DNA of 64,000 nucleotides, taken from Anaeromyces robustus. Its lineage: Eukaryota. The stretch covers positions 1 through 64,000 of the forward strand of contig MCFG01000099.1 of NCBI GenBank assembly GCA_002104895.1, read 5' to 3'. Below, in pieces: positions 2,197 to 31,646 of the stretch. The notes below the pieces were generated by a model that had not been told where the DNA came from, did not search any database, and saw only the letters and a program-made list of their open reading frames with translations. The position numbers were made by a program, and so were the translations under genes. The stretch's first letter is position 1. The number at the start of each line of letters is the position of its first letter.

Positions 2197-4216
2197 CTAG
2201 TTTTTATTTTCTATTATAGCATTATATAATTTTTTAGCGGATTCTTTATCTTTAACGCGAACTGCAAATCTAATCATTTTAATTTCATCACTACCTTCTA
2301 AACGATCCATAGCATTAAAAGTAAATTGATTAGCATTAACTGGTTCATTGACAACCATTTCTTTAAATAAAGAAACATTTAAGAAAACTGAACCATTATC
2401 CATTCTACCTAATAATCTAGCTTTATTAGTTTTTTTATTTTTATTAACTTTTAAGAGACCAACACCACGTGATATATATTTTTTTTCTTCCATTGAATAG
2501 AGATGAATTTTTGCTTTGACTTCATAAACGGTATCTTCATCTTCTTCTCCAGCACCAGTAGTTAATTGAATTTGTTCAGTTGCTTCATCATCATCGTCAT
2601 TACTCTGAGCTGCAGCAATTTCATCCTTTGATGGTGGTGTAACACCAAAAGAAAAGTTTGGTTTTGGCAAAGTCTTACCTTGGTCATCTGATGAAGCATT
2701 TGCCATTTTTTGTCCAAAATTAAATGTAAATGGTTTGAAGGTTGGAATAGTTGGTTTTGATGAATTATCTTTATCATCTGGTTTTTTAAAAGTGAAAGTT
2801 GAAGCTGCTGTAGTGTTAGTAGATTCTTTTGAATCATCTTTCTTTAAATTAAAGGAAAATGCAGGCTTATTATCAGATTTATTAAATGAAAATGTTGGTG
2901 TAGTAGTAGTAGATGATTTATTATCAGTTTTATTAAATGAAAATGTTGGTGTAGTAGTAGTAGATGATTTATTATCAGTTTTATTAAATGAAAATGTTGT
3001 GGTAGTAGAGGCTGGTTTATCAGTGTTATCTTTATTTAAATTGAAAGTAAAGGCCGGTTTAGTTGTTGTAGTACTAGTACTTGAACTGTTATTTCCAAAA
3101 CCAAAAGTAAGTGGTTTAGTTTCTTTTGATTCTTCTGTTGGTTTTGTAAATGAAAATGTTTGTTTTGATGAAGTAATTGATGATTCTGGTGCAAAATTAG
3201 ATTTTGTTTCAGATATTAATGCATTTTTATTATTAGTTAAATATTTAATTACTTCATCATATTCTTTTTCAATTTCCTTTCTTTTTTCTTGATATTGACC
3301 AATGTTTAATGAAATATCAAAAACAATGTCTTCCTTAATTGATTTTGAAACAAATGATATAAAACTTTCATTTAATCCACAAATTTGTTCTGTAAATTTT
3401 TTTATTTTTTCTTTCATTTCATTATTTGTACTTGTTGTAGAATTAGTATTAGTAGAAGATGTAGTAGTTGGTACAATAGGAGATGTTGTTGATTTGAAAC
3501 TAAATGATGATAATGATGGATTATTTGAATGTTGCTTTTAATTATTTTATTTTATTTTATTTTATATTTTTAAATAAAATATATGTAAATTATTAATAAG
3601 TAATATTACATAATTAAAAATTAAATATATGAAATGTATATAACAAACTTTTAATGAAGCTCTGGAACGTCTTTTCAAAGGTTTAATTCTATTTGTTAAG
3701 TATATAAATATTTATTATTATTAAATAACAATAATATAATATTTAGATATATTTTAATATTTTAATTGTTATTATTATTATTTCAAATAAATAAAGTAAC
3801 AAATATTATCTTTTAGTGATGAAACATTTATATTAAAAATTAATTTTGCTATTAATTTATATTTTTAAGAATATATTAAAAATGAAAACATAATTACTTT
3901 CTTCTACGTAAAACATCTTCTGAAGCTCTTTTAAAAGTAGTTCCCTATTAAATATTTATGTATATATTTAATAATTATAAATAAAATGATATTTTAATAT
4001 ATATTAAATTCTTTCTCTCTCTCTCTCTTGTTTTTTTTATTTTTTTTTATTTTTTTTTTTTTTTTTTTTTTTATATTAATTTTTTAATTTAATATTAGAT
4101 AATAAATTAATTTATTAATTAATTTGTTATTTAATTACTCCAACATCTTCTTCTTCATCATCATAAGCATCGTAATTTCTATCAGTTAAGTAGTATTCTG
4201 CTTCTCTTTTTGACAT
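2197..4216 (-). CDS. NUP2: Nup2/Nup50-like nucleoporin (N-terminal Nup50 motif, FxF repeats, C-terminal RanBD1), 4 exons
   Basis: ATG at 4216 gives MSKREAEYYLTDRNYDAYDDEEEDVG (resembles the Nup50 N-terminus). Exons are ~4216-4139, 3944-3898 (GTTFKRASEDVLRRRK), ~3688-3649 and ~3536-2197, with GT-AG introns. The last exon has FSF/FTF repeats and a Ran-binding domain (GEEDEDTVYEVKAKIH...GVGLLKVNK...ARLLGRMD). Confidence 0.88.
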
Positions 4217-4397: not shown

Positions 4398-4637
<240 letters not shown>

Positions 4638-5465
4638 ATACTAATAAAATTTATAAAGCTAAGTAATTTATTCAATATTAAGGATGATAACTTCAAATAT
4701 CATAAAAATTAATCAAAGAAAAAGGCCTTTCAAATACGTAATATATATAATATAATATAATATAATATATAATATATATAATTTTTCTTTTTTTATTTTT
4801 ATTTTTCTTTGTTTATTTATTTATTTTATTTAATGTAATAATTTATAATACATAAAGAATAAATAATATAATATTGATTGGTATTATTTTATAAAATACT
4901 TTTATTCAATAAAATAAATAAAAAATTATATAATATTATTACATTTAGGGAGCAATTTAATATTTATTTATCATTATTTATTATTATTATTATTTTTGAT
5001 ATTCATTATTTTGATTTACTATTTTATTACTTTTATTTTCATTCTACTTTTATTTTCTTTTATTGCTTTATTTTGTTTCATTTTTTTTTTTATCATTTTA
5101 GCAAATATAATATCTTTTATTGTTTTATTTTATTTTGTTTCATTTTTATTTTTATCATTTTTAGCAAATATAATATTATGCTATATATTGGGAAATTTTT
5201 ATTTCTTTATAGATTTTTGTAACAATATCCTATGTCATATTTTAGTAAACATAGTTTAATTGATTTATTGTGTATTATATTTATATATAAATAGTAAATA
5301 AGAAAATATTAAATAATATTTATCTAAAAACTATAAATATAGAAATATAATATAATATATGAAAACTTAAAATTGTATTATAAAGATCTTTAATATTGTT
5401 GTCTTTATAATTTAGAGTACACTTTTTTGTTTAAATTGTTGTTGCTTTCTAACGGGATCATTTAG

Positions 5466-6254
5466 TCAAAAATAAAGAACCATTTCATTTTCTTTCTTTT
5501 CGAATCCACATTTTTTATAGAAAGCCTATTTTTTTTTTTTTTTTAATAAATGTTTATTTAGTAAATATATATATATATATATATTTAAATAAATACTTAA
5601 TTGATAAAACTTTTTACTTACAATGTTACCATCATTACAATCTAAAATAATCTTGTAACAACCCATGGTTTTACCAATATGTTTTAAAGTTTCAATAACA
5701 CTGTTAATTATAAAAATATATAAAATATAATATTATTAAATATTTATTTGTGATTTTTACTATTTTTATTATTTTTATATTAAAAATTTATATTATATCA
5801 ATATTATTGATAGTTTTCAACATACTAGAGACCAAGACGCTTTCCACGTTGATTTTTGTCAACGACAATATCTATTTTGATTAATAAAATATTATAACAA
5901 AAATTTAATAAATGAATAAAAATTCAATAAATACAATAAATTTATAATTTTTACGAATTTTTTTTTAATATTATGAAGTTGCTTACCTTCAATGTGACCA
6001 CACTAAAATTTTAAGTATTAATGAATATTATAATATATTAATTATATAAAAGAAAAACATAAACATAATTAATTATCCATCTAATTATAAAAAGTATTAT
6101 AATATACTTTTATTATCATTATTGTCATATCATATTAGGTATTAATATAATAAACATACTAAACCAAGAGCGTGAATAAATTTTCTTTCAACAATTAAAC
6201 TATATTAAAAAATAAAATAATAAAATTAAAATTTTATTCTTATATATTTATTGA

Positions 6255-6342
<88 letters not shown>

Positions 6343-6688
6343 TAACAATAACAATGATACTTACGTTCCACTTCTACATATTTATAAAAGAAAAAGAAAA
6401 GAAAATCATGAAAAATTATATACAATTAAATGTTAGACAAATATAATTTTTATTTATTTTTTTTTTTTTTTAATTTTTAATTTGAAATATATTAAAGAAA
6501 AAAAATTGACATTTACGCAACAACTCTTTTGGATTCAACATGTTCAATGACAATACTAGCATAAGTATCTTGTCTGTCTTTTAAGTAATTGAAACGTTGT
6601 TCATAATCTTCCTTTTTAATTTCACCAACAGTAGTAAGTTGAGCTAAACAATCGAGATGACCCTTTTTTTTATTAATATTTAATACAA

Positions 6689-6737
<49 letters not shown>

Positions 6738-7103
6738 AACAAAGAATGTTATTTTATTTTATATATTTTCGAAACATTTAAATATTATAAATGAAATTGA
6801 TCTTTATTTTTATTATTTTATTATAAATTATTTATTTTCAAGGTTTAAAAATAATATGATGATCAATTCATCTCTTTTTAAGTTCTTATTATATAATACA
6901 TTACTAAGTTATAGTAATAATAATAATAATAATAGAAAAAAAAAAAAAAAAAAAAAAGAAAAAAGAAAAAATTTAAATAATATTAGTAATTAAAGTACTT
7001 TAGCATAGTCTTCAATTTCAAGTGGTCTAACACGGTAACCTTCTGGTAAACTTTTTTGAACTTCTTCAGAGATTAAATCAACAGAGCATTGATAGTTAAC
7101 CAT
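5466..7103 (-). CDS. GNA1: Glucosamine-6-phosphate N-acetyltransferase (GNAT family), 7 exons
   Basis: Spliced product: MVNYQCSVDLISEEVQKSLPEGYRVRPLEIEDYAK|GHLDCLAQLTTVG...VVA|SGT|LIVERKFIHALGL|CGHIE|DIVVDKNQRGKRLGL|VIETLKHIGKTMGCYKIILDCNDGNI|AFYKKCGFEKKENEMVLYF*. The GHIEDIVV, QRGKxLG and GCYKxILDC motifs are characteristic. Stop TGA is at 5466-5468. Not visible in the ORF track because the exons are short. Confidence 0.93.
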
Positions 7104-7344: not shown

Positions 7345-7605
7345 TATTTTACATTTATTTTTGATTTCTTTATCGTATTAATATGCATATTAAAGTACAC
7401 CCAAAAAATTTTTTAATATTACATTACTTTTAAAAACAAAAACAAAACAAGAAAAGAAAAGAAATAAAAAATTGAAAAATAAAAAAGATAATTAAATTGA
7501 ATATATAATATATACTTTACATTAATTTTATTATATATATATTTTCCTTTTTCTTTCTTTTTCTTTTTCTTTTTTTTTTTTTTTTTCATATGTATTATGA
7601 ATTTG

Positions 7606-7649
<44 letters not shown>

Positions 7650-7825
7650 AATTATTATTAATTAATTAATTGAAAATTTACAGATTAAACAAGATAAATA
7701 GATAAATATATTAACAATAACAATAAAACTAAAAAAAAAAAATAAAATAAATTTATATATTATATTATATATATAATTATTAAAAAAATAATGGTTTAAA
7801 ATTTATAATATTAATTTTTAATAAT

Positions 7826-18473: not shown

Positions 18474-20574
18474 TGGATAAAAATTAATATAATTAAAATT
18501 GTAATATTATTCAATTTCAATATTTAATATACAACACTTAAATAAATTGTTATCATGATATAATAGATTTTGAAAAACCTTCTTCAATTCAACAACGTGC
18601 AATTGTTCCTATAATAAAAGGTCGTGATGTTATTGCTCAAGCTCAATCTGGTACTGGTAAGACAGCTACATTTTCCATTGCTATGTTACAAAAAATTGAT
18701 ACTAAAACTAGAGAAACTCAAGCAATTGTATTATCACCAACTCGTGAACTTGCAACTCAAATTCAAAGTGTAGTATTAGCTTTAGGTGATTATATGAATG
18801 TTCAATGTCATGCATGTATTGGTGGTACTAATATTAGTGAAGATATTAAAAAATTAGAATATGGTCAACATATTATATCTGGTACTCCAGGTCGTGTTGG
18901 TGATATGATTCGTAGAAGAAGTTTACGAACTCGTCACGTAAAAATGTTAATTTTAGATGAAGCTGATGAAATGTTAAATAAAGGTTTCAAAGATCAAATT
19001 TATAATGTTTATCGTTATTTACCACCAGATACTCAAGTTGTATTATTAAGTGCCACTCTTCCAAATGATATATTAGAAATGACTTCAAAATTCATGACTG
19101 ATCCAATTAGAGTTTTAGTTAAACGTGATGAATTAACTTTAGAAGGTATAAAACAATTCTTCGTACCTGTAGAATTAGAAGAATGGAAATTTGATACCCT
19201 TTGTGATTTATATGATTCATTTACTATTATTCAAGCTGTTATTTTCTGTAATACTAGAAAGAAGGTTGATTGGTTAACTGAAAAAATGAGAGAAGCTAAT
19301 TTCACTATATCATCAATGCATGGTGATATGCCACAAAAGGAACGTGATGCTATTATGCAAGAATTTAGACAAGGAAAAAGGTTTTTTTTTTTTTTTTTTT
19401 TTATCTTTTTTTTTTTTTTTAATGTAGACTATATAGACAATATATAAAAATTTTAATAATGAAATATTAATTATTATTATTATTATTATTATTATTATAG
19501 TCGTGTTTTAATTACAACTGATGTTTGGGCTAGAGGTATTGATGTACAACAAATTTCTACTGTTATAAATTATGATTTACCACTTGATCGTGAAAATTAT
19601 ATTCATAGGTAAAATTATTAAATTAAATATTTTTTATAATAATAAAATAGTAAAGATTTTTGAATTATTTTAGAGAATTAAAGTTTGCAATTACTTGAAA
19701 AAGAAAAAGAATATTTAAATATGCATTTATATCTTTAATTTTATTTTTATTATTTTAATTTCAAATTTCAAATTTCAAATTTAAATTTTAAAATTTAAAA
19801 CATTTATATTAAGAAATTATATAATTTAAAAACAATAAGACAATAAAGATTTAATTTATTAACATAGATATTAAGACATTTAGAATATTAAAATTAAGAA
19901 TAAAGAATTTTAAAATTAACAAAAAATTAAATTAAATTATAAAAATAATAAAACCTATTAAAATAATGAATCATCAAAAATAGTTAAACAACATTAAAAC
20001 AAACGTTAACATTAAAAGATTAAAAATTTGAAAGATTAGTAATATAAGAATAGAAAAAGTTTAATTGTTAATTCATTAGAAAGAAAAAAATAGCGTAATT
20101 CATTATTAAATATATATATATTTTTTCTTAAATAATTAAAATAATTTAAATAGAATTGGTCGTTCAGGTCGTTTTGGTAGAAAGGGTGTTGGTAAGTAAA
20201 ATAATATTAATAGTATAAGTAGTATAAATAAATAAAATAATATATATATATTTTTTATTATCATTTTTTTTTTTAATTTATATATACATATTAATGAATA
20301 TTATGTATCTTTTTTATTATTAAAAATAGCTATTAATTTTGTAAAGAATGATGAAATTAAAATTTTACGTGATATAGAACAATATTATAGTACACAAATC
20401 GATGAAATGCCAATTAATAGTAAGTTTTCTTTATTTCAAATTTTAATAAATATATTTATATGTAAAATATTTTTATATTTGAAATGATTATTAACCTTTT
20501 TTATTATATATATATATTTATATTTATTTATTTTATTTTATTTTTTTTTTATTTTAGTTACTGATTTGGTTTAA
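18008..20574 (+). CDS. FAL1: DEAD-box RNA helicase eIF4A-III / Fal1, 6 exons
   Basis: [49 protein letters not shown]...[10 protein letters not shown]...PTRELA...TPGRV...DEAD...SAT...[13 protein letters not shown]...[13 protein letters not shown]...[15 protein letters not shown]...[50 protein letters not shown] and DVWARG point to eIF4A-III rather than eIF4A-I. Confidence 0.93.

Positions 20575-24790: not shown

Positions 24791-31646
<6,856 letters not shown>

Follow-up and report, generated by a model that had tools for sequence, protein, structure and literature searches.

A conserved tail behind the UGA-CUA stop of GNA1 in Anaeromyces robustus: a candidate case of stop-codon readthrough in anaerobic gut fungi

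In 2012 Freitag et al. reportedly described peroxisomal isoforms arising by stop-codon readthrough in fungi, in Ustilago maydis. In this organism Pgk1, Art1 and Rpe1 have readthrough-derived peroxisomal isoforms at UGA-CU(A), according to the retrieved portion of the paper of Stiebler et al. (2014; PMC4207609). The same portion states that no more than UGA CU(A) is needed for efficient readthrough in both U. maydis and HeLa cells, that the residues insertable at UGA are Trp, Arg, Cys or Ser, and that peroxisomal targeting signals of type PTS1 that depend on readthrough in some species are part of the ordinary open reading frame (ORF) in others.

The status of peroxisomes in gut fungi was considered unclear by Seppala et al., who reported homologues of the import machinery in Neocallimastix, Anaeromyces and Piromyces (PMC5168858). 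Their annotation of the Piromyces finnis transcriptome includes the PTS1 receptor PEX5 together with PEX3, 19, 13, 14, 2, 10, 12, 11, 6 and 4; the TCDB hits for Anaeromyces in that paper (3.A.20) are unspecific. In Trypanosoma brucei the enzyme GNA is glycosomal, according to the available text of a paper citing Marino et al., 2011 (PMC7909634). A literature search of titles and the beginnings of abstracts found only this trypanosome work and no report of a peroxisomal fungal GNA1, and a two-term search of the same scope found no report of stop-codon readthrough in anaerobic gut fungi.

The subject of this article is the GNA1 gene of the gut fungus Anaeromyces robustus, in which a stop of the UGA-CUA type is followed by a conserved in-frame tail ending in SVL. 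Readthrough, the mechanism considered, is already known elsewhere; what is new here is the client enzyme, the lineage and the ending in SVL. If this reading holds, anaerobic gut fungi would have their first candidate for programmed stop-codon readthrough.

The GNA1 gene and its stop

The window, that is, the whole stretch of 64,000 nucleotides of A. robustus DNA that was analysed, carries on its minus strand a gene of eight exons with GT..AG borders, spliced by eye and checked by translation, which encodes 166 amino acids (Table 1). The splice joints in contigs of three runs (X2, X3 and X14) fall exactly on these exon borders. The spliced protein is identical to the database protein P0124, which shares a 90%-identity cluster with named glucosamine 6-phosphate N-acetyltransferases of Piromyces finnis and Neocallimastix sp. 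The domains PF00583 and PF13508 are precomputed on the related protein P0002, and the AlphaFold model has a mean pLDDT of 89 with a confident fold of GNAT-type topology. Judged by its sequence, the window gene is GNA1, the glucosamine-6-phosphate N-acetyltransferase of the GNAT superfamily.

The public A. robustus model P0001 (105 aa) ends prematurely behind exon 4, the 16-nt exon 5 having apparently been missed. The introns and flanks of the gene contain long (ATT)n, (TTTATTTATC)-like and poly-T/poly-A tracts (6250-6345, 4400-4700, 6690-6740 and 7590-7650), at which GC falls to 0.00-0.04 in 100-nt windows. A Pfam scan that took in 28 of the 59 GC-richer ORFs of the window placed the four other genes of Table 1 and found no peroxin domain among those 28. 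None of the 59 ends in TGA-CTA.

Table 1. Features of the GNA1 gene and of its surroundings in the window
Feature	Position	Strand	Basis or remark
GNA1 exon 1	6999..7103	-	ATG at 7103-7101; spliced translation equals P0124
GNA1 exon 2	6517..6662	-	48-aa translation 100% identical to A. robustus protein P0001
GNA1 exon 3, 9-nt micro-exon	6365..6373	-	AG|..|GT borders; the frame and the residues SG (as in P0002 and P0124) require the exon
GNA1 exon 4	6160..6199	-	spliced contigs over 6160-6195
GNA1 exon 5, 16-nt micro-exon	5987..6002	-	exon reverse complement equals the 14 letters between joint 5873/6160 in X2, X3 and X14
GNA1 exon 6	5826..5871	-	contig pieces over 5826-5873
GNA1 exon 7	5622..5700	-	contig pieces over 5621-5700
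GNA1 exon 8, coding part (..FEKKENEMVLYF)	5469..5525	-	read on the strand and spliced translation
Stop TGA (5468-5466) and CTA (5465-5463), UGA-CUA leaky-termination context	5463..5468	-	the six bases also in L001 and L002
Candidate in-frame readthrough extension, 17 codons, LNDPVRKQQQFKQKSVL	5415..5465	-	conserved; homologous to the chytrid GNA1 tail
Second stop TAA	5412..5414	-	conservation and CDS-like GC cease at the TAA
A6 homopolymer within the extension	5423..5428	-	0 other letters and 0 gaps in X2, X3 and X14 contigs
TCT AAA TTA TAA (SKL-stop), one base out of frame	5405..5416	-	SKL not shared by L001 and L002
Rest of 3'UTR, AT-rich, unconserved	5165..5411	-	present in mRNA contigs; GC 0.134
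RanBP1-domain protein exon	2200-3537	-	Pfam scan
DEAD-box helicase exon	18542-19444	+	Pfam scan
Protein kinase fragment	26329-26481	+	Pfam scan
TRAF/XAF1-type zinc-finger protein exon	45521-46519	+	Pfam scan

A preliminary description of this DNA had noted the TGA CTA, the 17 open codons and the TAA on the minus strand, and its coordinates were reproduced. It had called the extension more GC-rich and codon-like than the untranslated region, which is borne out by the GC contents: 0.314 for the extension, close to the 0.313 of the coding sequence (CDS), against 0.134 in the remaining 3'UTR; the introns stand at 0.094. The in-frame end was likewise correctly described as the non-canonical SVL, for it reads SVL-TAA in the window and in two relatives, L001 and L002. 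Taken alone, a 17-codon open frame is within chance (P about 0.27): a run of 17 or more open codons comes directly after 27% of positions in the window's low-GC parts, and when the 51 nt of the extension are shuffled the frame is still open in 26%. The significance of the tail comes from the comparison of orthologues, not from the single sequence.

The contigs of X2, X3 and X14 span 5165-5519 without a difference or a gap, and the mRNA continues at least 300 nt beyond the TGA. Polyadenylation before 5412, which had been named as evidence against an extended product, is ruled out by the reach of these spliced contigs to 5165. They also dispose of the suggestion that the A6 run is an assembly error for A5 that hides a frameshift, since all three keep A6; in addition, every relative ends in SVL in frame, and this candidate explanation was rejected. 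The check draws on three spliced contigs, of which X3 is recorded as RNA and X2 and X14 are of unrecorded kind, while the DNA run X1 gave short pieces of 90-95% likeness, all lying outside 5378-5713. The out-of-frame SKL to which the description had drawn attention does exist. It is not a meaningful signal: the same frame gives ..SKFDH-stop in L001 and ..SKSLND-stop in L002, and since SKL occurs in the window and in neither relative, it is a chance feature of A. robustus.

Conservation and descent of the tail

A database search with exon 2 led to P0002, a protein of 183 aa that continues beyond the GNA1 end as ..MVLYF-W-LNDPIRKQKVFKRSVL. A metagenome scan with P0002 gave 35 loci. Two of them, L001 and L002, are close relatives, 99% and 91% identical to P0002, respectively; the remaining 33, none above 56% identity, were left out of the comparison. 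Both close relatives are intronless and thus transcript-derived, and the extension of L001 sits ahead of the contig's poly(A) end. Their DNA has TGA at the place of the 'W' of P0002, a codon that the gene caller evidently translated as Trp, and TGA CTA lies at 1896-1901 in L001 and at 580-585 in L002.

L001 also contains, at 2-1405 on the plus strand, an open frame of 467 aa that is open at the contig start and ends 8 nt inside the GNA1 start region. An assembly chimera could explain it, or an upstream gene packed tightly against GNA1; no counterpart was found upstream of GNA1 in the window.

Comparison of the DNA of these three taxa shows that TGA CTA AAT GAT CC is identical in all of them, so that UGA is followed by CU(A) in each. 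All three extensions terminate in AGT GT(A/T) CTC TAA. A conserved TGA-CTA and a conserved terminal SKL had been the two features to look for in orthologues; the former is present in three of three sequences, each with an in-frame extension, and the latter is replaced by SVL in the relatives. The extensions of the window, L001 and L002 have 17, 16 and 15 codons (51, 48 and 45 nt), so all length differences are multiples of three. The three CDSs are 86.5-91.2% identical, with 70-78% identity at third positions (22-30% differ), which indicates that neutral sites have diverged substantially. Nevertheless the extensions align at 80-84% identity, with z values of 8.3-10.2 against shuffles, whereas the alignment of the 100 nt beyond the TAA is at the level of shuffles (z -1.1 to 0.7). 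Synonymous changes in the tail comprise CCC/CCT, AAG/AAA, AAA/AAG and GTA/GTT; the replacements are mostly conservative (V/I/L, R/K and F/Y), and there are whole-codon insertions or deletions. About 4 of 16 codons are replaced in the tail between the window and L001, compared with 5 of 167 in the body, so the tail evolves faster. The in-frame insertions and deletions, the protein variants described below, and the steps in z and in GC at the TAA together mark a conserved coding extension that runs in frame to the next stop.

The protein records extend this picture. The cluster of P0002 has 17 members, and the 15 that are listed were used for a census of tails. Five of these are extended through a W (P0002, P0125, P0128, P0129 and P0131), nine end at YF and one, P0133, ends in YFIMVLC. 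Four of these extended proteins are matched by a twin whose body is identical and which stops at YF, confirming that the W stands for a TGA stop. Among the listed members the extended proteins add four tail variants to that of the window, five distinct tails in all; each begins with LNDP-[VIL]-[RK]-K-Q and ends with [KR]-S-V-L. P0002 has exactly the same body as a protein named for Neocallimastix sp. 'constans', and the feature thus spans at least two genera.

P0133 has a Piromyces-like body and ends ..EMFLYFIMVLC, with no stop after YF and no LNDP..SVL tail, as read from its protein record. In the five extended proteins a code-4 model was presumably chosen for AT-rich contigs, giving W for TGA. 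Since callers of metagenome genes can read TGA as Trp in this way, such extensions hide in public protein sets, and these artefacts in metagenome and metatranscriptome proteins can reveal conserved extensions.

The origin of the tail is indicated by other early-diverging fungi, in which PTS1 ends on GNA1 are widespread. Among the 120 best GNA1 homologues, 33 have a canonical PTS1 end of the form [SAC][KRH][LM], comprising 16 AKL, 15 SKL and 2 SRL; the chance probability of such an end is 0.0025 per protein. The genera named among them are Spizellomyces, Rhizophlyctis, Synchytrium, Phlyctochytrium, Globomyces, Catenaria, Allomyces, Blastocladiella, Paraphysoderma, Sorochytrium, Basidiobolus, Scutellospora and Acytostelium. 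In chytrids and blastoclads the GNA1 tail has the form Y-I-D-E-N-D-x(1-6)-K-[SA]-K-L. The sequence Y-F-stop-L-N-D-P..K-S-V-L of the anaerobic fungi matches the chytrid tails in every column, its stop standing opposite the D of IDEND, its ND equally offset from EMVLY and its end being K-S-x-L. By this alignment the extension descends from a constitutive PTS1 tail. The link to PTS1 that the preliminary description had drawn from the out-of-frame SKL thus survives in another form, through descent from the PTS1-bearing GNA1 tail of chytrids. GNA1 would then illustrate how a constitutive targeting signal can turn conditional through one leaky stop.

Blastoclads show a different arrangement. In Allomyces, Catenaria, Blastocladiella and Sorochytrium there are pairs of GNA1 paralogues (P0004/P0019, P0008/P0021, P0014/P0034 and P0018/P0023), in each of which only one member has a PTS1-like end, AKL or SKL. 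These pairs suggest dual localisation by way of gene duplication.

Readings of the tail

A stop of the leaky type, followed by a conserved coding tail of PTS1 descent, implies that a minor, longer GNA1 is probably made. That the tail is translated and has been selected as a peptide can be held with good confidence. GNA1 would be made as two forms in A. robustus and in at least one other genus of Neocallimastigomycota. The majority of ribosomes would terminate at UGA to give the 166-aa enzyme, and a minority would read through UGA-CUA, with a near-cognate tRNA inserting a residue, by analogy with Ustilago and HeLa cells. Readthrough would add a tail of 15-17 residues, LNDP[VIL][RK]KQ..[KR]SVL. 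This tail, by descent a constitutive PTS1 tail, now has a stop at its head, and with the stop in that position it would have become conditional. In the AlphaFold model the pLDDT is 48 and 38 in the last two blocks, after the last strand (161-165), and the tail is therefore probably flexible and exposed. The reading as a whole, in which UGA readthrough gives a minor GNA1 isoform with an ancestral and probably weak PTS1 tail, is the one favoured on balance, a judgement weighted to its readthrough part.

The destination of the longer form is a separate matter. It is tentatively proposed that the tail acts as a weak PTS1, by which PEX5 would direct the minor isoform to an organelle of peroxisome type. 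Because SVL is non-canonical, peroxisomal import is only plausible. A canonical tripeptide [SAC][KRH][LM] is absent from the end of the extension, which is SVL in all five variants; SVL has no basic residue at -2. Speaking for such a role of the tail are its descent from a PTS1 tail, a basic residue conserved at -4 and the glycosomal location of T. brucei GNA. The sole support found for SVL itself as a signal is an algal catalase whose SVL is described as a non-canonical PTS1 in the available portion of PMC9637915. Other weak PTS1-like ends, SAL, PKL, PRL and TSL, occur among the tails of the 120 GNA1 homologues. A PTS1 on GNA1 would link the acetyl-CoA-using step of chitin-precursor synthesis to peroxisomes. 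A more far-reaching and rather doubtful proposal is that Neocallimastigomycota have functional 'anaerobic' peroxisomes, that [KR]SVL is a PTS1 adapted to this lineage, and that a readthrough-tuned dose of GNA1 acts within the organelle, where it continues an ancient and hitherto undescribed peroxisomal step in the formation of UDP-GlcNAc, the chitin precursor. The SKL and AKL tails suggest that this step is constitutive in chytrids and blastoclads. The locus would provide a testable handle on whether hydrogenosome-bearing gut fungi keep working peroxisomes, and with what contents.

Among the alternatives, the one that best accords with the data is that the tail is read through and selected for a non-peroxisomal role, such as partner binding, regulation of the dimer or turnover, the ancestral PTS1 having been lost with the change of K to V. 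The invariance of SVL indicates that the V seems to be selected: it occupies -2 in five distinct tails, though one change could restore K or R, and its constancy in place of K could reflect selection for something other than PEX5 binding. The head LNDP[VIL][RK]KQ is conserved beyond the needs of a linker, and the ND motif is retained in chytrid tails too. However, the position, the range of lengths and the K-S-x-L end fit the PTS1 tails of the 33 homologues, the SAL, PKL, PRL and TSL ends suggest that weak signals are tolerated at this position, and no alternative motif was identified in the tail. A non-peroxisomal role is accordingly considered unlikely.

The preliminary description had also offered a decaying relic. 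On such a reading a nonsense mutation would have severed the PTS1 tail once peroxisomal GNA1 became useless in anaerobes, leaving a remnant not yet eroded. Such a history agrees with the homology of the tail to a formerly constitutive one, with the degradation of SKL to SVL and with its faster evolution relative to the enzyme body, and the chance expectation given above makes an open frame of this length unremarkable by itself. It fits poorly with the conservation of the frame, which survives two length changes without a stop despite the divergence at third positions and an untranslated region that cannot be aligned past the TAA. It fits equally poorly with LNDP and [KR]SVL in five of five variants from at least two genera, and with a GC content of 0.31 in the tail against 0.09-0.13 in non-coding DNA. 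A relic is thus improbable.

It is most improbable that the conserved 45-51 nt are instead a cis-element of the mRNA, acting in its stability, its localisation or the formation of its 3' end, or a small ORF in the +1 frame (MIPLES..). In favour of these readings, the nucleotides themselves are conserved at either end of the stretch, and an ATG five bases past the TGA opens 18-19 codons overlapping the tail in all three sequences. Against them, RNAalifold gives -1.8 kcal/mol with none of nine pairs compensatory, so that no conserved RNA structure was found, and Rfam gave no match at E up to 1. The insertions and deletions come in threes with conservative or synonymous changes in frame 0, the +1 frame has non-conservative changes (P/L, E/K and S/N) and differing ends (SKL-stop, SKFDH-stop and SKSLND-stop), and frame 0 is homologous to the chytrid tails.

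A selenoprotein, with UGA as Sec, was also rejected because no Rfam family, including SECIS, was found at E up to 1 in 4900-5600 of the window, L001 or L002, and because the UGA is aligned with Asp of the chytrid tails.

Comparison with known systems

The readthrough reading of GNA1 has its nearest mechanistic parallel in Pgk1, Art1 and Rpe1 of Ustilago. According to the retrieved portion of PMC4207609, these share with GNA1 the UGA-CUA context, a short conserved in-frame extension and a mainly cytosolic housekeeping enzyme, and there too other species carry the tail within the normal ORF ('no readthr.'). The GNA1 extension differs in ending in SVL rather than in a canonical PTS1, and its host is an obligate anaerobe. 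GNA1 is not among the enzymes in that portion of the paper, in which 'glucosamine' and 'acetyltransferase' have no occurrences. The +4 base of GNA1 is A, whereas G is said there to strengthen the motif.

The mammalian LDHB and MDH1 are likewise similar in having UGA CUA, a scarce extended isoform and a cryptic C-terminal targeting signal (PMC4359377; PMC5133446, in their available portions). They belong to another kingdom, are other enzymes, have recognised PTS1 ends and have been shown experimentally. The GNA of Trypanosoma brucei, in the available text of PMC7909634, resembles the present case in that the enzyme is able to work in a peroxisome-type organelle; it differs in its unrelated lineage, its constitutive localisation and in not involving readthrough.

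The evident forebears of the Anaeromyces extension are the constitutive PTS1-bearing GNA1 proteins of Chytridiomycota, Blastocladiomycota, Basidiobolus, a glomeromycete and dictyostelids. These are orthologous and have the tail in the same position, with the same offset of ND and with K-[SA]-x-L at the end. In these proteins the tail is part of the ORF, with SKL or AKL as its last residues, whereas that of Anaeromyces lies behind a stop and ends in SVL. In several blastoclads two forms of the enzyme would come from duplication of the gene; in the anaerobic fungi they would come from one gene with what is apparently a leaky stop.
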